From Amoeboaphelidium protococcarum X5 (lineage: Eukaryota > Fungi > Aphelidiomycota), in the NCBI GenBank assembly GCA_023515725.1, contig JALDTO010000266.1, positions 568,708 through 632,707 of the forward strand: a stretch of DNA of 64,000 nucleotides. Direction: 5' to 3'. A program made the position numbers and the translations under genes. Shown here one piece after another: positions 1 through 64,000 of the stretch. Within the stretch, counting starts at the first letter, position 1. Each line of letters opens with the position of its first letter. Below the pieces are notes generated by a model. It did no database searches, was not told where the DNA came from, and was given only the letters and a program-made list of their open reading frames with translations.

Positions 1-2
1 TC

Positions 3-698
3 TGTCTGCCAAGCTACTCTGCCAGCAGTTAATGTAAAAGACTGTCCCGCTTTGTGTCACTATATTATCATTTACCTAAATCTGTGCGACCGTCAAAGAA
101 GGATAAATTTGGATATTATTAACTTCTTCGTGAAGTTTCAGTTCTAGAGTTAATTTTAGCTCTGAGCGCGTGTGGATATGTATTCGGATCTTTATTTGGA
201 GGAGGCTTTTCATATCGATACTTTACACTGTCATGGTATAGTTTGCGGAGATGGAGAGTTTGGACTCTATTCACTTGGCCATTTAATCACGCATCTCTGT
301 TTAATCTGGCTTGGACTGTGTACTTGATTTACTCTGTTAGTGTGACTAATTATCAAACTTTGGGTGACAAATATTTTGGTAAGGCTTTGCTCTGCGTTTG
401 GTTCTCAATGACAATCTTGTCGGTATTTTATGGAGGTGTTATATCGCGCAATTATAATATAGCATCCATGTCATTGGTCTTAGTAGCTGTTGCAATATAT
501 GCAGGTATTCGCAACTTGCGACAGGACGATCTTTACAGAAGAGGATCTTAGCTATAATTCACTCAAAGCGAGATATTTATATTCCGACTCCTCGCGTATC
601 AATTAATTTATGATGTGTTTGTCAATGCATCTCTATCGTTGGTAACTCTGATTTGGCCAGTGGTAAGTGCTGTAGCGTGTCATACATTTATTAAATGA
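3..698 (+). CDS. 3' part of a multi-pass membrane protein (5'-truncated by window edge), function unknown
   Basis: Frame has no TGA from position 3 to the TGA at 696-698 when TAA/TAG=Gln; several hydrophobic segments. Confidence 0.6.
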
Positions 699-798
699 AG
701 ATAATGTACAATTTTAAAACTCTATCACATCGTTTTGTTCTCTTTCATTCAATCCCAACATTACAAAATTATTTTCTACCAAACAAGTTCGCATAAAA

Positions 799-2423
799 TC
801 ATATAAAGTGCCAGACTTCGATCGATTTAATCTCAAACGAGTGCCTACTATGGAGACTTTTGTTATGAAAAGTTTTACACGTATTAGTGGTGCCTTTGGT
901 CAGAGTTTCATCGATGGATAGACCAAAGTGTGCACCACCACCGCCGATTGCCATATACTTGTTAGTGCCAGAAATAAATAGAGACGCACCATCAGTCAAA
1001 GCTTTCACCTGCTCGGCATTGTCGGCATGGACATGAAATCCGACCCACCGATAGGCATGATCATGAGGTGCAAGAGTAAAGAGAAATGTCTCTGACGATC
1101 CAAAGAATCGCCCATCAAGTGAATGTCCTTGCCATGAGTCTGAGAGAAATGCGCCTAGGATGTGATCATCCAGTGTTTGAATTAGCAGAACTTGAGGCGC
1201 CTCTATCGCGCATTCTTTATACAACGATGCCAATCGATAACCGTGAATCTCGGTGCTGAACAGTAACTTCATAAAGTGACCCTTGTACTTCTTTGGAATG
1301 AACTGATACAAATACTTCCAATCCTGGTCTTTCATGAATGAGCTCTGAGACTTTAGCATAGGCATCACTTTGTAATCTTGTGGTGAGAGCACCATATCAG
1401 ATGAGTTACCACTAGCAAGCAGGTCAGTCTTCACCTTCACCTTCAGACCTTCAATCTAATTACGACTTAATTAAATATTAAAAGCGGTGTCGGAGAGCTT
1501 ATCATCATCTACTCCTAGTTTAAACTCTTCTTTCAGCATTAATTCATCAAGTTACTGGACATTGGTGCACTTGAGCATCTGCGGTCCACGTAAAATCAAC
1601 ATTGCAACACCATAGCGAATTATCACCTTATAGCCCTCCATGAGAAAGCTATCAAGCATTCTAAACTCGCAGCCAATGTCCATAGAATTTAGCAGAAATT
1701 CATTAATCCATTTTATCCAAAGATCGGAGTTATTGCTGATGTTACGGAGATGTTTGACAATCTTTGGCGCGATTTGCTGAGCAACTTCAGCGAATACCTG
1801 GTAGAAATGCATCATCTCCTACAGATTGATTGGCAGGTACATCCACTTATCATTTCGCTGAGCTTGAGATACCATGATCTTGGCAATACCATACACTTGG
1901 TCTTCATTCAGATTATGTAGCAGTAAGGCCACTACATTTGGTAACATGGGACTGTACTCCAACAGGGGAAAGTCGTGACTAAGCAGAATAAGAATGACTT
2001 TAACAACAGATTCACCGTACGGACTGAGAGCAAAGAGCGAGAAGTCAATTGCGCCTCCAAACGTAGGATACGAGCTGTTGCTTGCAGTATACTTTACCAG
2101 ATCTTCAGGTTAGATGTTGATCGACTTGAGAGCACTCACAAAATCATAGTCATGCTCAGCGATTGTGGACAATTTCATAATCTGAGGCCACACAAGGCTT
2201 CTGATTTCATTAGGAATTGACTCTCTGATCAGCTTCTTCAACTTTTGGCGATATTTATCCTCTTCCATCCATAACTTAAACTGGCGACTATCGCTCCATA
2301 CAGCAGAAGAGAATTTCTACACTTTACATGATAAGATCAGTTTGCTGTTATACTGAGTATTATATAGCCTACTTTGCTAAACTTGATAGTCTAGTATTTC
2401 TTTTAATCAACTAGCGAAGGCAT
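799..2423 (-). CDS. TBC (Rab-GAP) + TLDc domain protein, TBC1D24/Skywalker-like
   Basis: ATG 2423, intron 2317-2372 (GTAGG..TGTAG); TBC motifs LKKLIRESIPNEIRSLVW and RMLDSFLMEGYKVI; TLDc motifs LLFSTEIHGYRLASLY, FFGSSETFLFTL, IGGGG..FGLSID, CKTFHN; TGA 799-801. Confidence 0.88.
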
Positions 2424-2787
2424 TTAATTGAGTAGATCCAAGAAGGTTACTATATAACGAGTGATTTGTATAACTTTAAGGAGAGAGAGAGAATTCAGAG
2501 TGAATACAATCCTTATCGCTTATCGCACTGTATTATCATTTAGAATGATATTTATATAAGGCCCATTATGCGCAATTAACCGATGCTATTTACAGGCCAT
2601 TTGTAATTTCTCATGCCTTAAATGGTAACATGTGCTCTTGATTTGGCTACGTGGAGCAGACATCACGCGGAAATTTTTAAACTGCGCTTTATTTCGAGTT
2701 ATATAATCACTTAATTATTACTTGTATTTTTCATCATCATCAAGCTTTAAATATATATCTGCATTTGAATTAGCAAGGTTTTAAGAA

Positions 2788-3429
2788 ATGAAGGGACATG
2801 CGGATACGCTTCGTTAAATAGACAATCAATCGCTTCTGAATGGTGGCAATGGCGCGTCTCTAAAGTCTGATACTGGTAGTAAGACGCATTAAATGCATTA
2901 AATTCAGACATCTCATAATCTAAAAACTAACACTAAATTGTAAGAGCTGATGACAATGCCATTGACACCGTTCACAGCGTCGCCAAAATCTGGTATGTAT
3001 CGTTGTTTCATCTGCTGGGAGTCTTCTGGCGCGTCGGATGAGTTTATACTGCCTTGCAAGTGCAAGAATGAGAATTTAAAGTTTGCCCACACAAAATGCA
3101 TTGAGCGATGGGTGAATGACAATGGCAAGACGTCATGTGCTGTATGCACGGCACCATATAAATTTCAAGTAGATCATTTGCCGGCAAGTGCGATACTCCG
3201 CAAGAATTTCTGGATTCTACTCTCATTTCTAATACAGATCACTCTCCCTCTCAGCATCTACCTTATATTGTATCTGAATGGCGCTCTTTCTCACGTTAAT
3301 GGTGTTCTAATAGCAGCGCATCTTCTTATGCTTCTGGTGATGTACGCAGCGTTCACTATACACGTCTTCTCCGGTCTTGATAGATATAAAAAGAAGGTGA
3401 TCGCGTCGGAAGACATATAAAGAGTTTGA
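2788..3429 (+). CDS. RING-CH (MARCH-type) membrane E3 ubiquitin ligase
   Basis: C4HC3 RINGv CFICW..PCKC..AHTKC.ERW..SCAVC followed by two TM helices; ORF ATG 2788 to TGA 3427-3429 under table 6. Confidence 0.85.
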
Positions 3430-4839: not shown

Positions 4840-6318
4840 ATGGCTGAGCAAAAAGTGAAAAAGTAAAAGAAGCATAGACGCGATGAGACTGATGAAGAGC
4901 GTGCGGCTCGTAAGTAATGGAAGAAGCAGAAGAAGTATTAATAGTTGTAGTAAAAAGACACTCCATAGGATACTACTACTACTGTAAAGCATGATACTCA
5001 AGATTCTGCAGCACTGTGGCTCAAGGAGAATGATATCGTGTTGAGTAATGCTGGTGATTGGAAGCCTTGGTACACGTTTGATCAAGTCAATTTACCCAAG
5101 GATACTTTAAGTATCACCAAGAAATTTGATAAGCCTACTCCTATTCAGAGCTGTGCATGGCCTGTTATCACAACTAGACGTGACTTGATAGGTATCAGTT
5201 CAACGGGTAGTGGAAAGTCTCTCGCGTTTGGTATTCCAGCCCTGGCTCACCTTGTGCGTGAAGGAGTTGATTTCGGTAGAAGAAAGCGACTACCTCGCGT
5301 ACTTGTTCTATCTCCAACCAGAGAATTGGCTCTGCAAATCTTTGAATAGATTCAAGAAGCATCGCAAGGGATGAAGTGCGCGTCCGTATGTGTCTATGGT
5401 GGTGTTCCTAAATATGAGTAGAGAGAAATGTTCAAAAATGGCGTTGACATTGTTATTGGATGTGCTGGTCGTCTTGTTGATCTGATGGAAGATGGCTCAT
5501 GGAAACTGTCTGATATTGATTATATCGTATTGGATGAGGCTGATAGAATGCTGGATCTTGGATTTGAGAAAGAGGTGCGCAAGCTGATTTCTGCCACTAA
5601 TAGTAAGCGTCAGGTGGTTATGTTTAGTGCTACTTGGCCAGAGTCTATCCACAAGTTGTCTCAAGAGTATATGCATAATCCGGCAAAGATTGTTGTCGGA
5701 CAAGAGCAGGCTGCCAACGTGAATATCACTTAAATCGTGGATGTCATTGAGCCTCATTAGAAAGAGTAAAGGCTGCTGGATCTGCTTCAGAACTATCACA
5801 AGAAGAGAGATAATCGTATCTTGATATTCGCTCTGTACAAGAAGGAAGCTTCTAGATTGGAACAGTTCCTGATGCGTAAAGGATGGTCAGCTGTAGCTAT
5901 TCATGGTGATATGAATCAGACACAGAGACTTGATAGCTTTGATAAGTTCAGAAGCGGAAAGGTGCCATTGCTTATTGCAACTGATGTCGCGTCAAGAGGC
6001 TTAGATATTCCTAAGGTGGAGTATGTGATCAATTTCACCTTCCCACTTACCATTGAAGATTACATTCATCGTATTGGAAGAACTGGTCGCGCCGGCAGTA
6101 CTGGTATAGCTCATACTTTCTTCACGCTGCATGAGAAATCAAAGGCGGGTGAGTTGGTAAATGTTTTGAGACAAGCTGATTAGAAAGTGCCTCGAGATTT
6201 AATGAATTTCGGTACCGCTGTCAAGAAGAAGGAGCATAGCGCGTATGGTGCATTTTTCAAGGATGTAGACACTGACGCTAAGCCAACCAAGATTACATTT
6301 GATTCTGACTCTGAGTGA
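4840..6318 (+). CDS. DBP3: DEAD-box RNA helicase Dbp3 (60S biogenesis)
   Basis: [35 protein letters not shown]; Dbp3-type C-terminus [26 protein letters not shown]; TAA/TAG at conserved Gln sites. Confidence 0.95.
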
Positions 6319-10003: not shown

Positions 10004-10102
10004 TGCATGTTGTAACTATGTGATAGCTGTTGTAAGTAAATAGAACGATTAAGTGCACTTATTCAACTTGTATGATTTCATGTTTGGATTTCATATTTCA
10101 AA

Positions 10103-14071: not shown

Positions 14072-15739
<1,668 letters not shown>

Positions 15740-15828
15740 TCTCAAATAACAGAGATTTATATAAATCGCCTATCATAATGATTAATCTACTCTCTACAAA
15801 TATTACTCATATGTCTACAAATTCAGTA

Positions 15829-16419
15829 TCAATCACAATTCTTGTCAGCATAGCCATCGCGCCAACGTTATCCAACAAGCTGACAATCAAATTGAGGTTT
15901 ACCGAGACGAACATTTACGCGATTGTGCAGTTTACACATGTACTGCTCCAACTCTGAGCGCGTATTAAATTGGGGAGGATGCTTCTGCAGATCACTTTAA
16001 AGATCTTCGGCACACGTGTGACATGGATATATATGCGAGAAGGAGTTTAAAAGCTGTATCACTGACGTTTTATGAGTATCAGTCGGTTCTTCTGGGTAAT
16101 AAGAAGCCATGGTGTGTAGAAGTGTCCATCCTGATCGACCAATCTCTGTGGCATCCGGTGGGCAATCTTTCGCGTAATTATTGGGCAGCTTTTACTAGTC
16201 CTATATGGGTATATTCTCCAAAGAGCCGCGTGTATTTCCATAACGATCATCAGTCTATGACTTGCTAGATTCATGAGAGGTGGAAGTGGAAGTGGAAGCA
16301 GCAGCTTTCATCTACTTGAAGTCAAAGCACGCTCTGCATTTCTTCTTCGCTTTGCCATGTGCTGTCTGCTCTAAACTATTAATATCATTCTGAGCCTCGG
16401 AAGTATAACTCAAAGTCAT
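15829..16419 (-). CDS. ERV1: FAD-linked sulfhydryl oxidase Erv1/ALR
   Basis: N-terminal CRAC, CPPDATEIGRSGWTLLHTMA, YPCHTCA, CKLHNRVNVRLGKP.FDC, RWRDG...CD*. Confidence 0.95.
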
Positions 16420-16643
16420 TACAATCAATCTTTTTATATTCCAACTGTTTACTCTTATTAAATCCAAGTTCAACAAAACTATAAATTTAGCGGTATTTAA
16501 AGCGATCGGCTCATCCGATTCTTTTTGAAATTTTGTTGATCAAATCGACTGTAGTTGCTCTGTATACTGTAAAATCCTGATTCTTGGTATTGTAAGCTTA
16601 GCGGATTTTATAGATATTAAATAGCATTTGCAATATTTTTATT

Positions 16644-18021
16644 ATGGGAGCTGTTCTTGCTTGCTGTGTCGGATAAGCTGCATGCTGTGCGGCTGGCCAA
16701 GTCTTTGTAAGTTGTCTAATTTCAGAACGTAATACTATATTATTGAGTATCAAGTTTCTATCAATGTATATTTTTGTAGAGTTGTCTGTGCTGCAGTTTT
16801 TAGTTCCGTCCAAGTCTGAACACTAGATTATTGTATACTCTCGGGTTTATAATATCGACAGCTGTTGCTTGGTCTTTAGGTAGGTATGGATATCAGATCA
16901 GCGGAGTTACTCTGGATTAGAATTGCGATCGGGACTGTTTTAGTTATCTCGCAGTGGATAGAGTCAGTCTGGCGTCTGTGTTCTATCACACTCTACTCTT
17001 TATAATCACTCTAGGTGTACGAAGTTCTAAAGATCCGCGTGCTTACATTCATAACGGGTAAGACTTTTATTATGTTCTTTTTTGAGGAATCGATTTAGTA
17101 TGTTATGAGTAATGTGAGTACTGTAGATTTTGGCCGATTAAGACAATACTTTGGGCTGGTCTCATTGTCGCATGCTTCTTTATTCCAGCTGATCAACTAA
17201 AGACTTACTGGATCGCGACTTTTGTATTTGCAGCCTTATTCATACTACTCTAAGCGATGATGTTGGTTGACTTTGCCTGGGTGTGGAGTGGTACTTGGGT
17301 TGGCAAATATGAAGACGATTCGGGAAATGCTGCATTCTACTCTGCCCTTTTGGTTACCACCACCTTTTTATTCTATGCTGCAGTACTCGCCATGACAATT
17401 GTATTTTATATCTTCTATGGAGAAGCTGGATGCTCACTTAATTAGTTCTTTATCTCTTTCAATCTCATATTGGCCATTGTGATGACTGTTGTCGGTATTC
17501 TGCCACGCGTGCAAGAGGCCAATCCTAGATCTGGCATTTTCTAGTCTGCCATATTATCCGTGTATACTACCTATCTAGTTGGCAGCGCGATCAGTAGTCA
17601 GCCCGTTAATAAGTGCAGCTCAGCATCTTCATCAAGCTAGCTGTCAAACGGTGTTCTGATCACTGGTGTCGTCTTGACGTTTCTCTCTCTCGGCTACGCT
17701 GCGTTTAATGCTGGAACAAATTCTTCGTCACTGTTTGGCGGCGCCAATGGCGACAATGACGATGAGCCGGAAAGTGAAGAGGATGGCACCACGTACAACT
17801 ATTCCCTCTTCCATTTCATATTTATTCTCGCTGCGATGTACATGGCTGCCGTGCTTACTAACTGGGCAACGTTCAGTGAAGGTTCATCCAGTGTTCTGTT
17901 TGTGGATTACGGCTACACGTCGTCATAGATCAAGATTGGCACGTCGTGGCTCGTTTCAATTCTTTACATTTGGACTCTGGTGGCTCCCGTAGTGTTTCCT
18001 GATAGAGACTTTGGTGCTTGA
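16644..18021 (+). CDS. Serine incorporator (SERINC/Tms1) membrane protein
   Basis: Cys-rich MGAVLACC start; SSKDPRAYIHNG/FWPIK, QEANPRSGI, YNYSLFHFIF, LTNW, APVVFPDRDF; introns 16707-16779 and 17058-17126. Confidence 0.92.
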
Positions 18022-22278: not shown

Positions 22279-22776
22279 TCAATAGTACACCACCATCTCA
22301 ATCTCTTTCTTCTTATAGCCGCACTTGGCGTAGAAGCCTTCATTCTTCTCATCGCAGCACAGAATAGCCTTGTAACAACCAGCAGCTTTACCAATAGCCG
22401 TGAGTTGATCAATCAGGCGGCGGCCAAAGTTCTTGCCTCGCATATTATCACTCACCACCACATCCTCGATATGAGCCACCTTGCCGCATTCCCTGATGAA
22501 CTTTTATTCCACCATACAACTTCCGGAGGCTACGATACTCTTAGTAGACAGCTCTTCAATCACAACGACATGATACTCCTTGTTCCGCTGTGCCATATAC
22601 TTGAATGTTTCATCAAATCGCTGCTGTGTCACATCCCCGACCACAGTGAGCTGACTCAACAACTTCATATATCCTTTCCCAAAATCATCAGATCTAAGCG
22701 GTCGGATCGCATATCCATCAGGCAATTCCTTCTAAACTTGATCAAAAACTGAACTTCTTTCAAACAGATCCATCAT
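22279..22776 (-). CDS. GNA1: Glucosamine-6-phosphate N-acetyltransferase, copy A (intronless)
   Basis: IRPLRSDDFGKGYMKLLSQLTVVG, E[Q]KFIRECGKVAHIEDVVV, RGKNFG, GCYKAILCC, FYAKCG. Confidence 0.93.
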
Positions 22777-24821: not shown

Positions 24822-26108
24822 TCATTGCCATGCTTATAAAGCTTGAGCCATGCCAACAGGCATAGTTTCTTCAATCTGTACTTCGTCCGAATTTCTAGTT
24901 CTAAACACTGTCACCTCCTGTTACTTGAAGTAGCGTCTATTCTCCTCATCTATCAGCACCAGGTTGAGATAATAGCGCACGGAGAATCTCTTGTTCACGT
25001 CTCTAAAGGTTGGTGTCAAGTTTAGCGGGGACAAGAACAATCTCAGCGGAATAGTCTCACCGCGAATAGGCGCGCCATCCATAATCTCATGCTTCACAAC
25101 AGTTTCATTTTCATTGTATTAATTAGGAGCTACACAAACACATATCAATAAGATCGATGATAAAGTACATCGATGAGTATGTGTAACAATAAATCTTACG
25201 TGCTCCGACAGTCTCGCGTCTTATGATTGACAATTCCATGTGCTTCACTTTAATGCGCACCAGCAGAAAGTAAATCTTGCCAACAATAACATCTCTCATG
25301 TTGTATTTAGACTTGTTATATTCAAATTCAATATGCAAACAGTCCTCAATACCAACCTCCATTCTAATAGAATCATTAACCTGAGGCGGTATTTTATAAT
25401 TGTACACCCAGACATCCTTCTCATTTATAATGTCCGACAATCTTCTACTGATCGTGACTCTGACCATATATCTACACAAAGTACATCACGCACGTTATTC
25501 ACATAAAGTCGACTACCAAAATAAATAGCAAAGACATACCGTAAGCGAGCATTAATACCCCTATAGCACTCGTACTACTTCTCCACATTTCTAAACTCAA
25601 AATCATAATTGACGGTATGTCTCAGTTCTCCAGGTGCAGCCAACTCATTTCTCAAAGTTAAAAATTCATTATGGTTTCCGCGGTCATTGAATAGTTCTAC
25701 ATACTAAGCACTTATACTGTATGGCTTCTTAGAGACAATAAAATACAATAATTATCTCACCTATTTAGCCGACAAATTCGCACTTGATCCCGTTATGCTC
25801 CACCTTCTTGCCATCTTTCGCCTTTATAAGAATCTTGCCTTTTACTGGCTCTCCATCAAAATACAGTGGGAACAATTCAGTCTTCTACTCTGCCTTGTCC
25901 AGTGACATGGTGCTGCCATTCTTCATCTCTGAGCGAGACAATCTCAACGGAACGGCAATCTTCTTCCTCTAGTCTTCATTATTCAGAGTGATTTGAATAT
26001 CCACCGAGGGAGCGCCCAAACCAAGCAATGACTACATACGTTGATCGGATACACCAAATTAGTTTAGAATATAAATTTAAATGATAAGCCTACAGAAACC
26101 GCGTTCAT
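24822..26108 (-). CDS. VPS26: Retromer subunit Vps26
   Basis: [76 protein letters not shown][TAA=Q]QE; four introns, all ending TGTAG. Confidence 0.96.
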
Positions 26109-36134: not shown

Positions 36135-36707
36135 ATGATAAAACTGTTTGCACTGAAGCAATAAAAGAGCTAATAATCTCAAAGTAGTACTGATAGCACG
36201 TCTTAATAGTCTCTGGATTCGCAAGGCAAAAAGGCCGCCGCGTGTTAAATTAGATTACAGACTGACATGTCATAACTGGATCTGCCGCTATCATGTAAGT
36301 TGGAAATTCCTGATCATAATGATTTGCTGAATTTCTTCCTTTATATTACACCAGATGAAGGTGTATACAAAGGTGGCCGGTTTAAACTCTCATTTAAATT
36401 CAAGACTTCATATCCTCATGATCCGCCTAAAGTCACATGTACTCAGAAAGTTTATCATCCCAACATTGATTTGGAGGGAAATGTGTGTTTGAATATACTG
36501 AGAGAAGACTGGACGCCGGTTCTCAATCTGCAGGCTATTATAATGGGTCTCAACTTTTTATTTCTCGAACCCAATGCCGACGACCCTCTTAATAAGGATG
36601 CTGCTCAGGTGATGCGGAAAGACCCCGTTAAGTTTGAGCGAAACGTTCGTTACTCAATGGCAGGATCTACGGTTGATGGCGTTTAATTTGACCGCGTTCT
36701 AGTATGA
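36135..36707 (+). CDS. UBC12: NEDD8-conjugating enzyme Ubc12
   Basis: MIKLFALKQ[Q]K N-terminus; [50 protein letters not shown]. Confidence 0.96.
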
Positions 36708-40492: not shown

Positions 40493-41872
40493 ATGTCTTA
40501 AGAAATCGACTTGGAACAGGTACGGCAGTTAGTAAATTAAGGTTTGAAGCGCAAGGAAATTTTAGATACTCTAAATTCTAGTGGAACAATCTGCTCCAAG
40601 TCCAAATTGGACCGGTTTATGACTGAACATGGATTGAGTACTGCTTTAAATAGAGCCACATTTGCGGATTAAAGTGAACATTGGATTGAAGAAGCTCGCC
40701 ATCTAATTAATGGCGGGTCCACTTAACAATAATTATTGGATTGGCTGAAATAGAAGCATAATATTTAAATGTCCTTAAGGACTTTGCAATCGATTTTGTC
40801 GCAGCATTAAATTGGAACGAGACATTGTGCGCTATCTCCTGTCGAAGTTTTGGATTTAGTGCATGTTGTAAATCAGGATGAAGGTGAAAGATTGGGAATT
40901 AGATCAACTACATAAGTCCTTCGTGAACTATCAGGCCAATAAGTATCTCGAGACATGGTTATGGTTTGCTAAAGATTCGACAATCCAGAGGCTGTGTAAA
41001 TGCGTAAAAGGCGCAAGTTGAAACGCCGTGAATATTAAAATGATGGTCCTAATTAAGTGTGGCATATAGATGGCTTCGATAAGCTGTCGTAGTTTGGCTT
41101 TGGAATAAGTGCGTGTGTAGATGGTTTTAGTAGGTATGTTGTGTTTAGTATGGTCGCAGATACGAATAGGCCCGCGCGTTACATACTGGAATATTTTCTG
41201 GATGCGGCTGACAAATGCAATGTTATGCCTGGAAAAGTTCGTGTTGATGGCGGAACTGAGAACAATTACATCAAGTAATTGCAAGAAATATTGGTAGGTG
41301 AGAACTCTTATATTGTGGGTTCATCCAATTTCAATACGCGTATAGAAAGTTACTGGGGCAGATAGAATCATTATGGGCTTGAATATTGGATAGGAACGCT
41401 GAACAATCTTCACTTTGCAGGTTATTTTAATACCACGCTTTATTCTCATAAGACAATTTCTCAGTATTGTTTTGGACATTATATCGCTGAGTGTTTAGAT
41501 AAAATTACCACCTTGTGGAATTACCATAAGATTCGAAATCAAGGACAGCCCATCATGCGTTATCAAGTTCCCGAGATGTTTGATGGAGTAGAATGTGGTT
41601 TGGAGCCTCCTCAAGACATGCGTGATATGGCTATTCAATTGTTTGGACCAAGTACTATAGATATGAATGATAGGTTTAGAATTAATTACGCTAGGCATCT
41701 TATTGATGAAGTTGTTATAGAGAAAGGTTTTGATCAACTTACCTTTGACAATTGTCAAGATGTGTTCAAGGCTTTAGTGTCCGATGGCGATCTCGTAAGC
41801 GCGCTGGATGCATTTAGAGATTAATTGTTGATAGCAGAATAGTAAGTGAGAGGGTAGGAAATTGCTTAGTGA
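40493..41872 (+). CDS. IS3/integrase-like DDE transposase (IS3EU), 459 aa
   Basis: N-terminal HTH-like repeats (LLDWLK[Q]KHNI[Q]MSLRTL); RRKLKRREY..DGPN[Q]VWHIDGFDKL..FGF...CVDGFSR; VRVDGGTEN; SSNFNTRIESYW; WNYHKIR; D, D and E all present; TGA 41870-41872. Confidence 0.93.
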
Positions 41873-41957: not shown

Positions 41958-43973
41958 TCAATCCTCAGTCAAAGTTGGCAATTTCTTCTACGCAGCATTT
42001 TTAGCACGCGTATTAGGTCTTCTGCTAGACGGACGTATGTTTTTAACAATAGGATCCACCAACTTAATCTTAGATTTCTCCTTTACTATCTGCAAATCCT
42101 GAGTGGCTTGATTATTAACTTCTACCTGTTTAGACACAGAAGTTATGGAGACATCCGACTTCAATGATGTCTTCTACTATCCAAGAGGATTAGGAGCGGC
42201 CTATGCTGGAGATCCAAACACAGTGGACTCGAATTTATCCATTAAGAGAGAATCTTCCATAATCTTCTCCATTACTAAAGACGGAATGGTCGCGACATCT
42301 AAATGCAAAGCCTTGCAAATCTAATTGCACTAGTGCATAACGAAGAACTTCACAATTGCTGGTAAACCCATATTGCCAATACTGCAATCGGTGCCATTGA
42401 CAGTGCACACCTAAAGATCTGTAAAGTGACACTTAGAGCCTTGAATATCAACTATCATTTACTCGTAGTTCTCCTTCTCAAACCAATAATAGGAGTAATG
42501 GGCAAAAGCCCAGGCCACTTCTTCACGAAAGTTCTCCTCATAAGTCTGATCATCATCACAAATTTGCATAAAATGCTCGTTGTCGATATACTTCACAAAT
42601 TGGCCATCTACGAAGGGTTCAACTGTCCATATCTTTGCTAGATCCACCATATCACCAAATTCCTCATTTTATTTGTCTCTAATCTCCAGCATCACGCCAG
42701 CACAAACTCCACGCTACTCACCAGCAACCTATAGATATTCTTAACCCAGCAGCGTCTTAATCAATTCCGCGTCAAAATCTAGGAAGCACCTTTGAGCGCA
42801 AACAGAGTTTAATATTTCCCTAGCATGTAATCCATAATCATCGTCATCCTTATCAATTGCGCACTTAAAGACTACTGGCAGATCTGGAAAAAACTTGACC
42901 AGAGATCCATTATAGTAGCATCTTTTTATATTCCCTTTGTTAGTCTTTCCTGCCAGATCTGGCATTCCAACTACTCCTGGATCCTCAGTGAACCAGGAGC
43001 CTGTTTCATAGTCGTAGACATGCACAACCACACTGCCTTACAAGGAGCGCGTATTTTTTATTACACGCTGAGGGGACACCTTGGAAATGTTTTCAAACTA
43101 GCAAAACTTATTCTTATGTTCAATCTAACTATTTCTCGCAACATTTGAACTGACAGGTATGATCGTAGACTCCTGCGCAGATTTGATCTTTTTGACAGGC
43201 TTGACAGGTTGAATAATAGGCTCATCTAAAGTACGCGTCGGTTCAACAATTTCAAAATCATCCTTATCCTGCATCTTCTCATCTGGCAAACCATACTAGT
43301 AATCAAAGTCCTCGACATTCAAAAAATTCAGCTACTGTAGAGACTCATAGTTTCTCTTTAAACTAGGATGCAATTACACGCGATTGCTTTCAACCAACGG
43401 AATCAAATATAGCACCTTATCCTTATTAGAGGTATACTTACATCCTGCCAATTGAATATTCTGGGTCCATTATATTACGTCAAAATCAACTCCAAATTAG
43501 GGGATTTGGTGGATTTGACTTTGTCCAATTGACGATTGCTCAACTTGATAGTGAAACAATGCACAAGCTTATGCTAAGACAGATTGATAATTGTCATTAT
43601 ACTTGTCAATCTAAATCATCTATGGGCCAACATTTTCCAGACGCTTAAATTATCCAACCTTTGATCCTGAAATACAAGGGACAATGCTAATTTGCACCAG
43701 CGCGTTTTTACGCGTCAAACCTCTATTTCCACTACCAGGACCGTTTCTATGAACAGGGGGCGGCGGCTTAGTCTGGTATCCACTGTGCAATCTATTTACC
43801 ATTGACTCGGTTCTTGTCTGCACCGCAAGCTTTTTCTTTTACTCAAATTGCATTTGTGAATGCATCAACTAGGCTTGCGCCTATTGCCAAGATTTACATC
43901 CAGCACAATGACAGTCCTCCCTTTTGAGTCCGGACGAATTGGGACATAACACATCTTACAACGGATTAAACAT
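41958..43973 (-). CDS. Transposon-borne alpha-kinase (eEF2K/MHCK family) protein, 671 aa
   Basis: KGNIKRCY, VVFK, EPFVDGQFVKYIDN, AFAHYSY, MIVDIQG, FTDL[TAG=Q]V, GNMG..AIVKFF.MH[Q]CN[Q]ICKAL; single frame ATG 43973 to TGA 41958. Confidence 0.9.
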
Positions 43974-44819: not shown

Positions 44820-45921
44820 ATGGCCAAAAGAAATTAAAATGTGGATGTTCTAGCCAGAGCCCTGGTAGGAGAAAGAGAAAGTTATCAGGGCGCAGTCAGT
44901 AAGTGTATGTCTATCATACTGTCTATACATAGTTTGTAATGAGTTATTGTAGGATCCGATTTCTAACTTCACATGTCCTCAGTCAATGATCCCAGCTTTA
45001 AAAAGCTATAAAGAGTAAGCTTCATTAGAATTATGACGATAATATTAACATTTAATGTAGATGCTGACAATGTGGGTGAACAATACAACCAAAGGTGGAT
45101 CGACGAGCGTAATTGATCTTGTTTCAGATCTGGCGGATGGTTAGATTTTGGCCAACTTTCTATCTTTACTCACTGGAAAGCCACTAGAACTTCCACCTGC
45201 CATTAGTGATCGTGCCAGGCGATAGAATTTTCAGCTCATAATCAGCTTCATCTAAAGGGAGCTTAGTCTCTCGGAGAATGATCAGTGGTCTTTGCAAGGT
45301 CTCTTTGAACGTGATATCTCCTCAACTTACTGCCTGTTGGTAGATCTCGCTCATGCTCTTCAGTGTCCATATCAATTGCCATCTAATGTATCTATAGCGA
45401 TTGTTCATACAGAGTCGGTAAATGGTATTAAAACTAACAAGACTCGTAAGGTTCAATTGACTAAAGATGAGAAACTATTCTACCGTCCAGATATGATTGG
45501 ATCTAATCAGAATTTGAAAGGTTCTGTACTATCTCTCACAGAAGACCCATTTGACGCGTTATTCGACTCTAATCATGAAAGGGAACTGGAACAAGTTAAG
45601 CATTTGGTTACTGAATTTCTGAAGACCCACCTGGCCAAAGTTGATCGATAAATTACAGACTTGGCTCAGGACATGCACGATGGAACGAATTTTGTACTCC
45701 TGATAGCTGTGCTGAGTAACTTTTTTGTGCCTCTTAACAAATTCTCAATCAATCCACAGACTAATGAAGACAAGCTGAAAAATGTTCTATTTCTGTTGAA
45801 AATGCTGGAGCGTCTAGGAATTCCTGGCTCAAAATGGAACGCAGCTGATGTGGTCCGCAAAGATTTGAAGATGATCCTTAGATTGAGTTTTGATATTTTC
45901 AAATCATTCAACGCCAATTGA
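44820..45921 (+). CDS. Parvin (tandem calponin-homology protein of the ILK-PINCH-parvin complex)
   Basis: SVNDPSFKKL..MLTMWVN, DLVSDLADG[Q]IL, DPFDALFD, ITDLAQDMHDG..FVLLIAVLSNFFVPL, DVVRKDLKMILRL; two introns ending TGTAG (44952, 45060). Confidence 0.88.
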
Positions 45922-53378: not shown

Positions 53379-55598
53379 ATGACGCAGCCTAGTTAGTAAA
53401 AGTAATAGCAAGATGCGCCAGATTTCATTAAGGATGGTCGAAATAGGAATTGGTGGAGATGCAGAATGTATGAACTGCGTCCGACTGACAGTGCTCCTCC
53501 GTTAGATGCTGAGTAGAATGAAGCCGTTCATTGGGTTCAAGTTGTCACTGGATACTGTGCTGTTATTTAGGAATCTGAGCAGGAGTACTACATTGTTTTG
53601 AAAGATGAGAAGAAATTACTTAAAGAAAGTGGCAATATGAATAATAATAATGGCACAGAGTACCAGTAGGAACAAGATGAGAACATTGACAGTGAACAGA
53701 TGGCGCGTGCTCGGAGTTTCTCTTCGGCTTTGTCTCAGCAGACGAACGCGAGCGATGGCGATCAACAGTCGTACGAACTGAAACATAAAATCACTCAAGA
53801 CGTTTATGAGAAGCAGTAGAATAGCCTCATAGTTTTCGAGTATGGAGATAAAGAAGTCGCGCTGTCTTTCTAGAATTCTCAGGGGTGTGAGAGTATATTG
53901 GATTAGATATATGATGTGTGTTTGCATGTAGACGCCCTCCATGGTCAGTTGCGACAATCTCCTGTTCAATACAGTCTTAATAATGGTGATCATGGAAATT
54001 CGCATATAATCAAGTAGGATTTTATTCAGCTACTAAATATGTAATTGTCTTATAATGAACTTCCTGTGCTCGAAAATGCAGTTGGTGTCGTGAATCGATA
54101 GAATTCCCAATTACTTTGTTAGAACGTTGACAAAATTTTAAAAATTGTCACGTAGTTGTTCACTCTGGTTGAAGATTTGAAAATGAAGGATTTGATAGAG
54201 AACTGCTTTTCTATTATGAAGACTATTGTTAATCTGAATGATGTTGAAGTTACCGCTGCTATTTGTAAGAGTCAAGATCGATTTATCAAAGTACTTGGCA
54301 TTTTCGAATATGATCCCGAATATCCAATGTCAGAGCACTCTCTCAGGCGACCGCTTATAAACAGTATGAATGCATTTGTTAATATCCTCTAGTTGGACAC
54401 TTAGTCTCAGCTATTGCAAAAGATTCATTAGACGTTTCGTGCTCAATATCTTCGGGATGCAGTTCTCAGTCGTTTGTTGGATGAAGGATGCTTTGGCTCT
54501 GTGAACTCGTTTATTATGTTGAATCAGAGTGAGATTCTGAATGAACTTCTGGCAGATAATCATCAATAAGCTTTAATTTCAATCTGCAGAAGATTCAAGT
54601 AGCTGTCTATGAAAAGTGGCAGTGATAGTGGACAGATTTTGGCGATGATTCGATTTATACATGAACTCTTTGCAACAGTTGGAGAAATTACACTGATTAA
54701 TAAAGAGGACTTTTTTAGACTTATGGCCAGTCAGGGAATAGTTTAGGAGCTTTGCAAGTATTTGCGAAACCCTTTATTCTCAACACTGGTTCTGGACATT
54801 ATTCAGGTGCTTTAGGAGTCTGACATTAAACTCCTCAGGCAATTTGTTATTGCGCAGTAAAAGTATAAAGTCACCAATCTACTTGAAGATCTAACATTTC
54901 TCCTTAATCAGCGTGTCATATTATCGGATGGTGTATTGAATGATGAAGAACTGTAAACTTCGGTAGCTGTAGATGGAGCCAGATTGTAAAGTTTTGAAGT
55001 CGTATATGCCCTGCTTAATGTGTCAGCGGGTGATTAGAATATGGAATCTGAGTAATTTTTGGAACTATTCTACTTGTAGTACTTTGAGAAACTAATTGCA
55101 TCTTTGAAAGTTTATATCAACTCTCAGGGCACGGACAAGTTGCGATTAAGAGTTTAAATGAGAAAGTTGAGACTCAAAGATTACCAGATACTCTCCCATC
55201 TGATCTAAATAATCACTGTAATGGTACAGAAACACGCGGTCAAGTCTCGGACAGAACTATTTTAGCATAGCGTCATCATAGCCATCTCTAATCTTCTCTA
55301 CTCATCGCATTCAGTCGTCAAGTTGGACGCGATTAAATTCATTAAAGCTGTAATTCTGCTCAAAGACTCGTTCTATAACAGACATTTGATCATCAATGAA
55401 GTTCTGGACAAGGTAATGGCTAATTACATTGATAACAAGTATCGGTACAATATGTTGTACTCAGCCTGCCTAGACCTCTTCAATTACATATTCGCCAATC
55501 GATTGATGGTATTCGTCACACCTCTGTTGGCTAGGTACAAATAAGAGTTTATAGATTTATAGTATTTGATTCCTTCCATAGGTGAACTGACAATGTGA
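53379..55598 (+). CDS. PSY2: PP4 regulatory subunit 3 (Psy2/SMEK/PPP4R3)
   Basis: EVH1-like RCRMYEL..W...VTGYC, YEKQ[Q]NSLIV..VALSF[Q]NSQGC; SMK-1 domain VLGIFEYDPEYP, KIH[Q]TFRAQYLRDAVL, RYNMLYSACLDLF. Confidence 0.88.
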
Positions 55599-55731: not shown

Positions 55732-57999
55732 TCACTCATCGTCCTCGGGAGGAATGTCGTCTTCATCTTCAGGCTCAGTCTAATCTTCAGCGCGGCGATG
55801 AATGAGCGGCTTGATTAGACGCTCAAAGTACGGTGGTGGATGCACAGGCGGATTTCTTGATACAACCTTGTTGAAGTAGTGAGTGTAAATATCACCGTCA
55901 TATCTACCCAGCGGACTATTCAACACGAAATCCGGCAGATTAAAAGCATCAACCAGAGGAACGGCATCCTTTCTAATTTGATGACACAGCTCCAACACTT
56001 GGGACTTTACAAAATCCATCTGCTAACTGTTGAAGTAACCATACTGCAGAAAATTGCCAGCATTCTCCTGAATATTGTAAAGTCCATATAGGGCACAAAG
56101 CTTGGTCAATACCGGCTTCAACTCGGCCGGAGCCTTCTGCAAACCATCATAGAACCTGTGGAATAGATATCCGAATGCATGATTCTTAGCCGCATGCAAA
56201 CGACTGATGGCCGTCTCTTCATATGCCGCATCGGTATCCAAGCCACGCTTTAGACACTGCTCAAAATCCTCACCAACCTTCTTAACCAAATTGGCAGATA
56301 CGACATCGTACGCTTCACCAATCACATTCAAATCCAGGATATCAGCCTACTACTTCACTCTACATTTCTTGTTCAGCAAGGAATCGATATTATTCAAATA
56401 CTTGACTCCACCGGGAAGAGTCTTGCCCGCTTTGGCTTCTCTATAACAAGAGACCAAGTATCTTCCGGACTGTAAAGTCAGAATAGTATTATCACCTTCC
56501 CAGGAACACTGTACAGCAAAGTCGTTGTACATATGGGCCAATCCAACATAACTAGAATATCCATGACCACCACACGACTGACGACACTTCTCAATAGTAT
56601 CAAGACAATTCCAAGTACAGAACGCTTTCAATCCAGCACTGGTTGCATGAGTTTCTTTCAAAGCAGCCAGTACAACATCCACATCCTTATCACCGGGCTT
56701 CAATCTATTCAACTTTTCCATCAAATCGTCATACAATCTCATAGTCTCCACACCGGTAAAGTGCATCGCATAGGCCTATGCCAGCAATGGCAGCAATCTA
56801 TGCTGATGAATAGTATAATCTAACAGTTGAGTTTCCACATTAAATTCAGATGGCTAATTCGTTCCACTTTAGTTATCAGGTGGAGAAGTAGAGGAAGATG
56901 ATTAATCAGAATCTGAGGAAGTGGCTGAAGAAAACTATCTACGCACGGCAGCGTATCTAATCGCTATGGTAAGGGCCTTCTTTGACACATTGGCACTATC
57001 AATCACCATAGAGACTCTACCTTGGATAAGAGCACCATAAGCCAATTAGTTCAAAGGCGGCTCCTTGACAATACCCTCTCTGCTGACTTTGGTATACTTC
57101 ATGAGCATATACGTTCTAGGAATGCGGACATTAGTAAACTAGATCCAACCATTATCAATACCATTCCTGCCCATCTTAGACCCATTATCTCCAATACTAA
57201 CACCAGGCTTCAACTTGTAAGTATGAGGATCTCTCAATGGAACAACGAATGGCTTCACACCATAATCTTTACCATTCACAATAAGTCTAGCAAACACTGA
57301 CGCATGAGTTGCAGTATGAGCAGCACCGCCTATCCACCACTTGGTACCGGTCAAAGATGGCGTGTTGATCACAAACTAATCAGATGCAGGATCAAATACG
57401 GCCACAGTCTCAATACCGGCGACATTACTACCATGTCCCAGCTCCGTCATTGCAAAACAGCCCACCATACCATTCAAGCCCATAGCGCCCTTTTCTACCC
57501 AATAAGACAATTAATTCGGTGTGGCCTGTCCTTGAAGAGTACTAAAGAACAGACCAAAATGGACACCGATTCTAGTCCAAAATCCAGGATCAATCAGACT
57601 GACGAGCTCCATACGAAGACGAAATATCTCCAAAGGTTCATTCATCAGATGATGCACAAAGCCCTGGAACTTCTCAATGGTCCGCTCTCTCCACTGCTCT
57701 TTCGTCAGATCATAGACATCATCCAAGCGGAAAGTAGGATCTCTCTCAATCTCCAAGAATATCTTCTCCTTCAGGCAAGTCATGTTCTCATCGCCACCAT
57801 CCATAAATATAGTCAGCTGTCTTGGATCAAAGGAGGCCTTGCTTCTCTCCGCAGCCATAGTCTCCATAGTACTACAATATTACAAGGTACCATCATAATT
57901 ATTATTATTTATCCACTCTCACGTAATCTCAACAAAGTCATACCTAGGCTGCGAACGGATATGCCTTTCAATAGCAGTTAGTCTATTACTCGGTGCCAT
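55732..57999 (-). CDS. POX1: Peroxisomal acyl-CoA oxidase with N-terminal PTS2-like signal
   Basis: [74 protein letters not shown]; intron 57872-57943; N-terminal RLTAIERHI. Confidence 0.95.
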
Positions 58000-58344: not shown

Positions 58345-59592
58345 TCACTCCAAAGAAGGATCAACGAGAAGCATTCCTAGCTAGCCGTCAGGGCTTCTTG
58401 CACCATCGCCATCAAGCGGGAGACATTGGATAGCTTTGGGTAGCCCTTTGTACCTAATGGAATGATCGGATGGTCGACTTTATCTGCGATTATACTAATT
58501 AGATAGTTCTTGATATGTATGAAAATCATAAGCAACTCTGACAGCTGGTACAACGACAATCTTGTTTAATCCAGCGCGTACAAAGTCATCGCATAGTTGA
58601 TTCATTTCAGACTGAGAGCAGGTGGAGTATATGAGATCCGTTTTGAACATGTCTTTAAATTGTTGGAGCAATGGGCCTTGATATAGACTACTGTATTCCC
58701 TTCTGAATTTAATATTGATACCATTTTCCACGAACGCGTCAGCATTTAATACAACCATACCATTCCAGCAGCATTAAACTTGAAATGGATGCTCCTCTCG
58801 AAGTAGATCATCAGCGGCTTGATCGTTTGTAAAAGAGTCCAGCGGAATTTTCTTAAACATTTCACCCTTCATGTTTCGGTCCACCCATGTGTCATAAAAG
58901 CCCAGCTAGTTGATCTCATCATTTATATCAAAGTCAAGTGCGCAGGTTATATCAGACTATTGTAGCCTAGATTGATACAAGAGCTCGAGAGCGTCATTCA
59001 CACAGAAGAACACGTCGTTGAGAAACAGGACTTTATCAAACTACTTGCCTGTGGACTACATTGCGTATAGAGGCTGCATCACCTGATTCCGGACACCGAC
59101 AAGGTATTCAATTCTGTTCACACCATCAGGACGGTGATCTGAAGATAGTTGGACCGTGTGCTGCACTTTGAGCGAGGTGAGAATCATCTCAAACAGGGCA
59201 AGATACGTCTTTGTTTGATCATGCGAACCGCTTTCAAATACGGACACGTAAACGCGTTGGCTACCGAGGTGACTAACTAGAGAATGCAGTTGTATTATCA
59301 TGTCAATGGCAATTTCTTGATTGTCGCGTAAATTTATAGCAATGTATACTTTCTCGCTACTAACTGCCAGAGCTTTGTATCTTTTACCTCGAGCCCAAGA
59401 GCTCTTGCGGTCACATAATTGATTTTTCGCTGATAGATTAAAAGATTATAGTACACCATCAATGTTGATAGCCTGGTGTTTAGTTTACATCGTCTGCAGT
59501 TGAACAACAGTAAACAGAAACAAAATACACGCAGTGAGTAGCAAGAGAAACATGTAAGAGTTGGCCATTAGATATCTTCGCCACTGTAACAT
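58345..59592 (-). CDS. CAP59/CMT1-like alpha-1,3-mannosyltransferase (GT69), type II membrane protein
   Basis: N-terminal TM; VYVSVFESGSHD.TK, RIEYL..VRN.VM.PL, FDKVLFLNDVFFC, FYDTWV.R, CCWNGMVVL, CSQSE...LCDDF. Confidence 0.88.
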
Positions 59593-59926: not shown

Positions 59927-60565
59927 TCATTTCAATTTTCGAATGTTAGATATAAGATTCCATAGAATGAAAGGTCTAACAATTTTACGCTTTCTAGCTT
60001 TCGACTTCTCAGATGGCAGGATCATGGCAGGCTTAGATGGGATCATAGACACCAAATGTGCTTGTCTCAAATGTCTTTGTTTCAGCGCGACATTTTCATT
60101 GGGAGACACCAAACATTCATTAGTAGGCATGCGTATTGATGTGATGAGACTAGCACTATCTTCATCATTATCACTTAATGACCTTTGAGAATTTCTGACG
60201 TGATTTACAACTTGCTCTTTACTAATATACGGAGCAGGTGTATAATGATAGCACGGATTCCCAGAAAATAAATGCTGATTATGCTTTTAGCAATAGTAGC
60301 ACGAAATTAAACTCACCAGTGGCCTATATTCTATAAGACTATTCTGATTATCAGCAAAATCTATATACTGATTCAATGACGCGACTCGAAGCTATTGAGG
60401 CATTGATACAATGGCCCGCTGGTTTTTGGTATAAATTCCAGAAAAATGCCGCGGATCAAAGTCATTAGGCAGCAGCAATTCCCCTTAGAGGATACCAATT
60501 GAGTATGGTGGCAATGAATTGCCAGTCGACGTGGTAGAATCTGAAACAACTGACTCTCTGTCCAT
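59927..60565 (-). CDS. Orphan tandem family member 1 (212 aa; CxxC..CxH motif)
   Basis: Open frame ATG 60565 to TGA 59927; LPPYS..GE..LP..FDPR, RPLVSLISCYYC[Q]KHN..PCYH and LVSMIP shared with copies 2 and 3. Confidence 0.75.
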
Positions 60566-61087
60566 TTTATTTTAGTGTTTTGTTACTATACGGGAGGTAG
60601 AATAAAAATGAAAGATTGTTGACTTCATTTGCGTGAACATCTGATTAGACCGTGTAAAGGGGCCCGCGGATTTTGATTGGTCCCAACTGGATGAAACTGA
60701 CATTCCATGATTTAACTTGATGAAAAAGATCTTGTGGTGCGGTGAAAATCAAAATTCTTGGATCATACTTCTAAGTGTCTAGTTTTGGAAGGAAACGGTT
60801 ATTTAAATGCTTTAAAGACCCCACCCACACATTTACGTTTTAGTACCAATGTAATTTCACACCAAAGGACGCCACCTGAAACTGAGCGCACTTGGATAGA
60901 CTAGGCCTTTAAAGTCACTAGTACAAAAAGAATAAAAACTGTAATCTTTACTCATATTCTTCACGTTCTAATCCTTGATGATCCAGAAGAGAGATGGGCG
61001 TTTCACACTGTAATGTCCAGTGCAGTATACCCGCAGTGACACGAGTCGATCGCGACACGATTGTCGGCATCAAAATTATGTTCATTA

Positions 61088-61954
61088 TCAATGCTGTTCA
61101 TTATCGAATAAGTTTTATATCACACCAAGAAGCGGATATTTATAAAAAAAGGGATTCACCATTATGCGGCGTCTAGGAGATTAAGCCTGAGGAACAAATG
61201 CAGGTTACTGAGGAATCATAGCTATTAAAGGCTCACGCTATTGTGCAAGGTTTAGGTGCCTGTCAGAGGAGCCCGTGGTTTATATTTACTCAGGGATGTT
61301 AGCGATATTGATCCCTGCGCCACTTCGGTGCTTCCTAGTTTAGGTTGATCCGCTCGCTGATCTGACGATCACCACTTTACTTCAGATTTTTAACACCACT
61401 TAGTAGTAATATATTGATCATCTCTTATTAGTCTTTCCAACCACATTTCAAAAAGGGATTTGACCAGAATTTTCATTTGCTCTCATTTACATTAAGGTAT
61501 TGAGATCAATGTAATCTCCATCGTCTTCACCATAATCGCCATCATCAATGTTCTATTAACGTGTCGACTCAGTATCGTGGCGCTTACTTTAATTAAATCT
61601 CCTATTACTGTTCAACACTCTCATTTAATGCTCGCATCTCTTTCCCATAACATAATCCGTATTATACTTTTAGCAGTATAGACAAGAAATCTGATCAATA
61701 AGAGGCGTCTGCTGCGGTCTTGCAAGCTAATGAGGATGACCCAAATTAACGTGCCCATTCATAGGCGCGTCTATTACCTACTGCTGTTGCATTGAAACAA
61801 TTTATCCCTGATTGAGCGTGTGAGTCGCAGCAAAGTAACAAGGCTCACAATCCTGCGGCATAGGATGTTCACCGCTTCTAACAGATTAAGAGTATGTCGG
61901 CAAGGAAGCATCAGCTGGATTGGAAGAATTGAGTGCGCTTTACTAACTATTCAT
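61088..61954 (-). pseudogene. Orphan tandem family member 2, interrupted by a block with three in-frame TGA (truncated, chimeric, or carrying an atypical intron)
   Basis: Clear nucleotide similarity to 62246-62935; TGA at 61448, 61418 and 61382; family C-terminal motif PLIAMIPQ[Q]P resumes in the same frame. Confidence 0.6.
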
Positions 61955-62245
61955 ATTTAGTTATGTCAATTGGTCAGTTAATATTGCAGTTAGAGAAAGA
62001 GCATTGTGTGATCATTTAACTGATTGCATTTGTCGCATCACGAGGGCTCAAACAACGGGGCTTGTCACGAGCCGTGTCATGCATAGTTTTTGAATTCATC
62101 CAAAAATGGGTTAGGATAATGTAAACATAACATTTAACTAATTAACAAGATATTAAGAGATGCCAAATTATATTATAAACGCGATCATGTTTTTTATGAA
62201 ACGAAAATCAAAAAGCTAGTTTCACTCAATTGATGATGTCTGCTA

Positions 62246-62935
62246 TCATGTCAAATAGTGCCGATGGTCTCTCTCCAGTTCCAGCATCCGGGATACACTG
62301 CCGCGGTATCTTGTTCGAGTTTGAACCCGTACAACGACGATAGGCTATTACGGAATCATGGCTACTAAAGGTTGGTTCTACTATCTCGTACCCAAACCAT
62401 TATGGTGAGGAGCCACGGTTTAAAACTAGCGTGGAACGTGACCAATATCTCCACTGTCACGTAAACGCATTATCGTGCTAAGATCAGTCAAGTCTTCATC
62501 ATCATCATCATCTTCACCATCATCAATATTTTATTACCGAGTCGACTAAGTATCGTGGCGCTAACTTAAATTCAATCTTTCATTTCTTGTAATAACTCTC
62601 ATTTAGTGCTCGCATCTCTTTCCAAGAACATAATCTTTGTTATACTTCTAGCAGTAGTAACAAGAAATTTGATCAATCAAAGGCCTCTATTGCGGTCTTG
62701 CAAACTGATGAGGATGGACCAAATTATTAGCGCGGCCATTAAAGGACGCGTCTCTTACCGGCTGATGCTGCATTGAAACAATTGGTCCCTGAGTGGTTGT
62801 TGTAACGGAAGGAAAGTTGCGAGGATCACAATTGTACGGCAGAGGTTACTCACCGCCTCTGATACATTTAGAGTATGGCGGTTGTGAAACATCACTTGAG
62901 GAGGTGGACTCGGATACGTTAGACAAACTATTCAT
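62246..62935 (-). CDS. Orphan tandem family member 3 (229 aa)
   Basis: Open frame ATG 62935 to TGA 62246; QPPYS..GE.PLP..CDPR, RPLIDQISCYYC[Q]KYN..RCEH, acidic tract, PLVAMIP[Q][Q]P. Confidence 0.78.
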
Positions 62936-63352
62936 GATTATAAATTTCCTTTCTCGAGGGTATACAAAAGCAGTGATGAAATTAAAAGACTAAAGTCACT
63001 GCAGATCGACGTTGTGTTGATTTATGAGGGCGTAACAGTAGATTGGCATCTGATTCAAGCCCGTTACTAAATAAGACACACAAAGTGGCCTATCTTAGAC
63101 AATGAAGAGAATTTATTTAGTATCAAAATTATGGAGCTTCGACCTGTCAACTAAAGAGTTTAAATGTAGAAATACTCTTAACTTACGTCCATATCATAGT
63201 CATGTTGTTTAACGATGTGACGATGCACTTTCGGTGATGACTCATATAACTTTGAATTTAGGCCAGACGTATGTAATGTCACTTCGTAACTTGCCAGTTA
63301 TTCTGCTGTAAAATTGCATTTTGTAGAAACATCTTGACTAAATAAATCTAAT

Positions 63353-63892
63353 ATGGCAACTACGGAAGAGCTCCCAAAGTATGAAGACGTTGTCCGAGAG
63401 TCTGCTTATCCTCCGCGATACGAAAATCCTGCTGCAACCGTAAATGTGCCGAGACGAAGACCGGCTTAGTCACAGAGAAGACACCCGACGGTCGATATTA
63501 CGGAACAATATGTGCACTATCACGATCATCATATTCAGACCCTGCGCAATCCAAGTACTTCGCATGCTGCCGTCGTTAACAACCAATAACAGGCTGTAAG
63601 AGTGGATCAAACTTAATCATCAGCTGAGCCACCGCCATCGTCCAGCCGAATCAGGGTGAAACAGTTCAAGGATCTGCCGCAGACTGTGAAACGGAAGGTG
63701 AAAGAAAGTTGGAGGCAGATGAAACAAGGCATTCCTGGTGGAAACGTTGAGCACGCGCCTGAAGAACTGCAATAAGAAATCCGCTCTCGCAGGAGACGTG
63801 AATGTGCCAAGTTCATTGGCTTCGTTATCCTAACTGGCGTAGTGTACGCTGTCATTGTATTATTCTTCACTGCAATCATCATTCTGGTTTGA
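63353..63892 (+). CDS. Tail-anchored membrane protein with N-terminal LPxY/PPxY motifs (179 aa)
   Basis: ELPKYED, YPPRYEN; basic patch RRRRE followed by a terminal hydrophobic helix FIGFVILTGVVYAVIVLFFTAIIILV*. Confidence 0.78.
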
Positions 63893-64000
63893 TTTGATTT
63901 AAATGAAGTGCTTTAAGGTGTCGTGAGTGTGGCGTGTTTTATGGGTGAGTGTTAAATTGTTTGAAGTAAAGTTTATTTTTGCATGTTGTGTGTGTGTGAA

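Follow-up and report, generated by a model that had tools for sequence, protein, structure and literature searches.

Probable translation of TAA and TAG as glutamine in a 64-kb stretch of the Amoeboaphelidium protococcarum genome

We analyzed 64,000 nucleotides of Amoeboaphelidium protococcarum DNA (contig JALDTO010000266.1, positions 568,708 to 632,707; hereafter the window) for the meaning of in-frame TAA and TAG codons. The window is gene-dense nuclear DNA of ~40% GC with short GT-AG introns, and its genes are read with NCBI table 6. Our results support a code in which TAA and TAG (together TAR; UAR in mRNA) are translated as glutamine (Gln) and TGA is the stop, a reading to which we give a probability of roughly 0.96. 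A preliminary description of the window had proposed this code, and the proposal held up: both codons scored best as Gln, and conserved gene ends fell at TGA. The code is already published for A. protococcarum (Karpov et al., 2013, Protist 164:195, cited in passages of PMC5304391, PMC6299283, and PMC11687900 and listed among the references of PMC13192750) and is built into public annotation.

The residue encoded by TAA and TAG

Under the standard code, the window contains one open frame of at least 300 codons, versus 32 when TGA is the sole stop. Translation with TAR read as X gave housekeeping proteins with whole Pfam domains (64 frames scanned), including SRP54, a DEAD-box helicase, TM9SF, acyl-CoA oxidase, a G-protein alpha subunit (G-alpha), UBC12, ERV1, RasGEF, and condensin H. 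All 20 coding sequences tested would be stopped by the standard code after 2-118 residues. The Pfam-matched stretches of 31 frames (6939 codons) contain 70 TAA, 95 TAG, 72 CAA, and 125 CAG codons, with TAR inside these stretches in 27 of the 31 frames; their Gln content is 5.2% when TAR is counted and 2.8% when it is not. Across 24 coding sequences, TAR makes up 445 of 868 Gln codons. We rejected frame length as proof, since by length alone TGA is not distinguished from the other candidate stops: there are 17 frames of at least 400 codons with TGA as sole stop (mean 0.45 and maximum 4 in 20 shuffles), but TAA as sole stop also gives 7 and TAG as sole stop 12 (shuffle means 0.1 and 2.8).

We scored each codon against alignment columns of four families. 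For SRP54, acyl-CoA oxidase, and TM9SF, we used 119 of 120 homologs each, dropping the A. protococcarum record as circular; for DBP3, we used 93 of 150 listed homologs, namely those of 400-800 amino acids among the best 100 minus the first. Window proteins were aligned with TAR masked as X, and the 2151 columns with occupancy of at least 80% were scored. Gln was the best residue for both TAA (log-ratio 13.3 versus -27.6 for the next residue, 17 columns) and TAG (38.9 versus -39.6, 32 columns). Thirty-nine columns were at least 80% Gln, and at these the window proteins carry TAR in 16, CAA or CAG (CAR) in 20, and another codon in 3. Thus, 16 of the 49 scored TAR codons lie on Gln-conserved columns, compared to 0.9 expected (hypergeometric P = 9e-18). 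When all conserved columns were considered, Gln was the conserved residue for 7/9 TAA, 9/12 TAG, 4/5 CAA, and 16/21 CAG codons, that is, for 16 of 21 TAR versus 20 of 26 CAA/CAG codons.

All sites quoted in the preliminary description are present in the sequence, and they agree with this result. In SRP54, the TAA in GL[TAA 14405]GSGK and the TAG in QLK[TAG 14525]NA each face Gln in 100% of 119 homologs, while the TM9SF column at VRTN[TAG 31676]IPRQ is 79% Gln. Three further sites align with Gln in proteins of solved structure: RRYFK[X]QE of VPS26 with RRYFKQQEV, LKQ[X]K of UBC12 with LKQQKK, and STVLR[X]LK of G-alpha with STIVKQMK. Only a minority of sites are invariant Gln positions as described there; like CAA and CAG, TAR codons mostly occur at variable positions.

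A different assignment, whether separate meanings for TAA and TAG, one of the residues Glu, Tyr, Lys, and Leu in place of Gln, or reassignment of a further codon such as CGA, is highly improbable. Single TAR sites that face Trp, Tyr, or Ala columns would fit it, as would the score of CGA, which favored Lys (3.8) over Arg (-1.4) on 4 columns. However, Gln is ahead of the next residue by 41 log units for TAA and 78 for TAG. The 4 CGA columns are all unconserved (one holds 68 Arg and 50 Lys), and the Arg of the kinase HRD motif and that of the RasGEF motif RLKKTW are both encoded by CGA; we therefore rejected CGA reassignment. The other 60 of 61 sense codons returned their standard residue in the four families, and no further codon looks reassigned.

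We also compared the window proteins with deposited A. protococcarum proteins, in which all 50 TAR codons examined are Q. As the same code was used in that annotation, the comparison is circular, and this agreement counts only for the code being already known, not as proof.

Gene ends and the role of TGA

The preliminary description held that DBP3, ERV1, TM9SF, and MZT1 have conserved C termini that end at TGA, and all four were found to do so. In TM9SF, TGA immediately follows KID, and all 119 homologs terminate at that same column. The MZT1 frame ends one residue past the end of the Pfam model and ERV1 nine residues after a full Pfam model, while the end of DBP3 resembles those of its homologs. 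The UBC12 TGA falls at the end of the structural match. That no TGA occurs inside domains is true by construction, as the frames were defined as TGA-free.

These ends bear on whether UAA and UAG are read by context, as Gln within genes and as stops near transcript ends, in the manner of Condylostoma and Blastocrithidia. TAR does occur among the last few codons of the Met2, integrase, G-alpha, DnaJ, and RasGEF frames, and as gene ends are known from DNA alone, a TAR stop followed by TGA looks the same there as Gln followed by TGA. Nonetheless, gene ends show no depletion of TAR, which accounts for 33 of 52 Gln codons within the final 30 codons versus 333 of 654 elsewhere (20 genes, Fisher P = 0.09). 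Moreover, the UBC12 TAA at residue 184, 7 codons ahead of TGA, precedes the conserved last motif and is therefore read through, and the conserved ends of TM9SF, MZT1, DBP3, and ERV1 lie at TGA. We consider context-dependent termination very unlikely.

We saw no use of TGA as a sense codon at five loci (dUTPase, Snf7, the second GNA1, an F-box gene, and PP4R3). Frame breaks in the first four are explained by GT..AG introns, judged by eye. PP4R3 ends right after its Pfam domain, lacking a long C-terminal tail, and stops earlier than is usual for the family. We considered read-through of this TGA or a strain-specific nonsense mutation, and rejected the latter since the three other deposited copies end alike, giving an identical end in four copies. 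Among 20 genes, the base following the TGA stop is most often T (11 genes), with G and A in 4 genes each and C in 1.

Fate of TAR codons in transcripts, strains, and paralogs

Contigs of sequencing run X5 skip two GT..AG introns, at 16706-16782 (in the Serinc gene) and 17056-17126, that DNA runs X1, X9, and X11 keep. This skipping marks X5 as probable spliced RNA from a related strain; the kinds of X5 and X6 are not on record, and no run is recorded as RNA. In both X5 and X6, a single contig covers 14681-15115 and shows 30 differences from the window; the 26 that are listed are all synonymous, one being TAG to TAA. At all five TAR codons within 14712-15085, the contigs of this other strain keep the T.

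These data argue against editing of TAA and TAG to CAA and CAG in mRNA, with ribosomes using the standard code. Editing predicts the same Gln alignments when DNA alone is aligned, and we saw no other support for it. It would require 445 edits in 24 genes, and the contigs of X5 (likely RNA) and X6 retain TAR at 5 of 5 sites, with only the exchange of TAG for TAA at one. We regard editing as most improbable.

Differences between strains and copies were synonymous at 45 of 46 codons examined, and DNA run X1, which may be the source sample of the window, includes pieces with 0 differences from it. Both results oppose the idea that in-frame stops reflect pseudogene decay or sequencing errors, as do the full length of the housekeeping genes and the concentration of TAR on Gln columns. 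The probability of decay or error is negligible. In two intervals (14599-14962 and 15490-15961), X1 contains two versions of similar depth. One matches the window exactly and the other diverges from it by ~8%, largely at synonymous positions; judged by sequence, these are two divergent haplotypes or copies of the genome. In one further deposited set, each gene is likewise present twice on a single contig.

Exchanges between TAR and CAR were also found within the window: two between the second and third members of a tandem gene family (61448-62011 and 62246-62995) and one between the GNA1 paralogs. A Logan protein (P0391) ends just before DBP3 Gln258, which is CAG in the window, likely through an exchange of CAG and TAR in another strain. 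The tandem family comprises three small paralogs that lack a Pfam match and share a motif of the type PLIDQISCxYCQK, two members being identical at 95 of 167 positions. The two GNA1-like acetyltransferase genes lie 6 kb apart.

Several points weigh against Gln as the meaning of TAR or narrow the tests of it. Depth scoring covers four gene families only, and the homologs of SRP54 and DBP3 were retrieved with queries that had Gln at TAR sites, which may have biased their ranking slightly (the queries for acyl-CoA oxidase and TM9SF had X). Five of the 21 conserved TAR columns are non-Gln (Ala, Leu, Tyr, Pro, and Trp) and lend Gln no support, for example TAG 31925 of TM9SF (97% Trp) and TAA 14081 of SRP54 (91% Ala); two of the five fall in the poorly aligned SRP54 tail, and the miss rate of TAR (5/21) equals that of CAA/CAG (6/26). 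Between paralogs, TAR-bearing columns face TAR or CAR in 6 of 16 cases in the tandem pair and in 1 of 15 in a more distant pair. Lastly, X5 and X6 derive from another strain, rare variants are lost in contigs, and 4 of the 30 differences, near the ends, are unlisted.

Source organism and gene content

The top match of SRP54 is a deposited A. protococcarum protein at 99% identity, with the runner-up at 63%; acyl-CoA oxidase and TM9SF, searched with TAR masked as X, match deposited A. protococcarum proteins at 97% each, with runners-up at 76% and 44%. Of 10 table-6 translations, 8 have an exact match already deposited at NCBI, all seven protein clusters with named members name A. protococcarum only, and window proteins differ from other deposited copies by ~0.3-11%. 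In a quick tree of acyl-CoA oxidase (28 of 121 rows), the window sequence groups with the A. protococcarum record on a branch of 0.0065, inside a clade of six rows that also holds Paraphelidium and three unnamed proteins (Shimodaira-Hasegawa-like approximate likelihood ratio test, SH-aLRT, 100). By sequence, then, the source organism of the window is A. protococcarum, whose genus is placed under Aphelidiomycota at NCBI. The preliminary description had guessed this lineage from a gene set (HAL kinase, Met2, CAP59, Dbp3, and parvin). The guess was right and the domains are present, while the argument from the gene set is suggestive; it is protein identity, not gene content, that settles the species.

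The unnamed acyl-CoA oxidases of the aphelid clade (P0122-P0124; 625-716 amino acids, 25-33 Gln) look uninterrupted, a hint that these relatives may use the standard code; the code with which they were called is not on record. Scanning of metagenomes returned 2 loci from 77 stretches, neither from a close relative (L001, 52% and open under the standard code; L002, 34%). Biofilm metagenome run X11, from a separate study, carries a 3183-base contig ~93% identical to 14840-17999, which by sequence places a close relative of the window organism in the environment.

Coordinates of the genes discussed are collected in Table 1. The two-CH-domain protein was named parvin-like in the preliminary description, and Pfam gives CH domains only.

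Table 1. Genes and coding stretches of the window (TAR, in-frame TAA or TAG; aa, amino acids)
Feature	Position	Strand	Length (aa)	TAR	Remarks
DBP3-type DEAD-box helicase	4840-6318	+	492	13	TAG 5419 in 97% Gln column; TAA 5731 in 96% Gln column; ends at TGA
SRP54	14072-15739	+	555	28	25 CAA/CAG; TAR at Gln-conserved sites 14405, 14525, 14696, 14771, 15086; ends at TGA
ERV1	15829-16419	-		7	Pfam model matched 1-93 of 93; ends at TGA
Serinc gene, GT..AG intron	16707-16781	+			Skipped in contigs of run X5
GNA1-like acetyltransferase, first	22279-22776	-			Without introns
VPS26, last coding stretch	24822-25130	-			TAA 24921-24923 = Gln of RRYFKQQEV
MZT1/MOZART1 frame	28810-28959	-			Start uncertain; ends at TGA
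GNA1-like acetyltransferase, second	~29272-29900	+			At least 2 introns
TM9SF/EMP70	30230-32155	+	641	9	
G-protein alpha subunit	34539-35654	-	371	10	TAR at residue 56 (35487-35489) = Gln of STIVKQMK
UBC12	36135-36707	+	190	8	Residue 10 aligns with Gln
Integrase-core gene (rva_4)	40493-41872	+	459	22	22 of 38 Gln codons are TAR; intact
Alpha-kinase gene	41958-43973	-	671	28	28 of 57 Gln codons are TAR; faces integrase gene
Two-CH-domain protein	45055-45921	+			
PP4R3	53379-55598	+	739		TGA end common to 3/3 other deposited copies
Acyl-CoA oxidase, main coding stretch	55732-57867	-		13	TAR in 96-100% Gln columns: 57513, 57141, 57048, 56937; ends at TGA
CAP59-type mannosyltransferase	58345-59592	-			
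Tandem paralog, first	59927-60748	-			
Tandem paralog, second	61448-62011	-			
Tandem paralog, third	62246-62995	-			

A candidate mobile element

The integrase and alpha-kinase genes differ in copy number from their neighbors. An identical integrase occurs on 12 contigs and the alpha-kinase on 11, versus 1 contig for each of six other window proteins found, and near-identical copies of the two genes adjoin elsewhere in another deposited set. Locus-tag spacing from Met2 to PP4R3 leaves room for six genes in three other copies of this region versus eight in the window, and the pair appears to be missing from that gene order in all three. By these features, the pair is likely a mobile element that was active recently, carries a kinase as cargo, and is written in the code of its host. 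A search for terminal repeats around the pair gave none that were convincing, and the ends of the element were not found.

Proposed mechanism

As TAR accounts for half of all Gln codons (28 in SRP54), near-cognate read-through would be too weak to produce complete proteins, and dedicated tRNAs are likely. Gln-tRNAs with UUA and CUA anticodons likely read UAR. By analogy with other UAR = Gln systems, a tRNA-Gln(UUA) would read UAA and, by wobble, UAG, with a CUA partner probable; glutaminyl-tRNA synthetase would charge these tRNAs; and an eRF1 with altered stop-recognition motifs, having lost recognition of UAR, is predicted to respond to UGA only. The wobble argument for UUA and a suppressor tRNA experiment in Tetrahymena are given in passages of PMC11687900 and PMC5304391, and a passage of PMC5304391 lists, for stop recognition by the eRF1 N-domain, the motifs GTS, TASNIKS, and YxCxxxF and the positions E55 and S70. 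The 64-kb window contains 0 tRNA genes, and eRF1 is absent from the Pfam matches of the frames scanned in it, in which no search aimed at eRF1 was made. A literature search that extended neither to supplements nor to the main primary papers found no publication devoted to the UAR-reading tRNAs or eRF1 of A. protococcarum.

Reassignment could instead be incomplete, with UAR read as Gln inside genes and eRF1 still terminating at UAA or UAG in some contexts, such as beside the poly(A) tail or among the final codons of certain genes. This would make A. protococcarum a fungal-lineage example of stop codons with two meanings, but we think it very unlikely. We favor full reassignment of both codons to Gln.

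Discussion

Reassignment of nuclear stop codons to Gln in a lineage next to Fungi is a real and rare trait; to our knowledge, A. protococcarum is the sole opisthokont case. Our analysis of the window adds nothing beyond the published code or the databases. Its use is practical: other stretches of the A. protococcarum genome need table 6, as otherwise intact genes look broken. Gene callers using the standard code do cut A. protococcarum proteins, as seen in Logan fragments P0384, P0390, and P0391.

The code of the window is identical to that published for A. protococcarum, the same species, with no difference between them. A passage of PMC6299283 reports an apparent glutamine meaning for TAG and TAA in A. 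protococcarum and the absence of this change from Paraphelidium. The aphelid Paraphelidium tribonemae, which shares the supported acyl-CoA oxidase clade with the window, uses the standard code with no interrupting stops, according to the same passage. Thus, the code change is narrower than the aphelids.

Beyond the aphelids, a passage of PMC11687900 groups A. protococcarum with ciliates, Ulvophyceae, Hexamita, and Streblomastix. The table 6 organisms described there (Tetrahymena, Ulvophyceae, Hexamita, and Streblomastix) share with it the coupled assignment of UAA and UAG to Gln, with UGA as the stop, whereas A. protococcarum represents an independent origin in a fungus-related lineage. In Tetrahymena, the suppressor tRNA was shown by experiment (PMC11687900, in the passage concerned), while the A. 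protococcarum tRNA is proposed by analogy. Condylostoma and Blastocrithidia, whose codes depend on context, also use stop codons as sense codons; in contrast to these, the genes of the window do not avoid TAR near their ends, and TGA was not seen as a sense codon at the loci examined. Finally, where Iotanema reads only UAG as Gln and the rhizarian exLh reads UAG as Leu, in the window both UAA and UAG behave as Gln.

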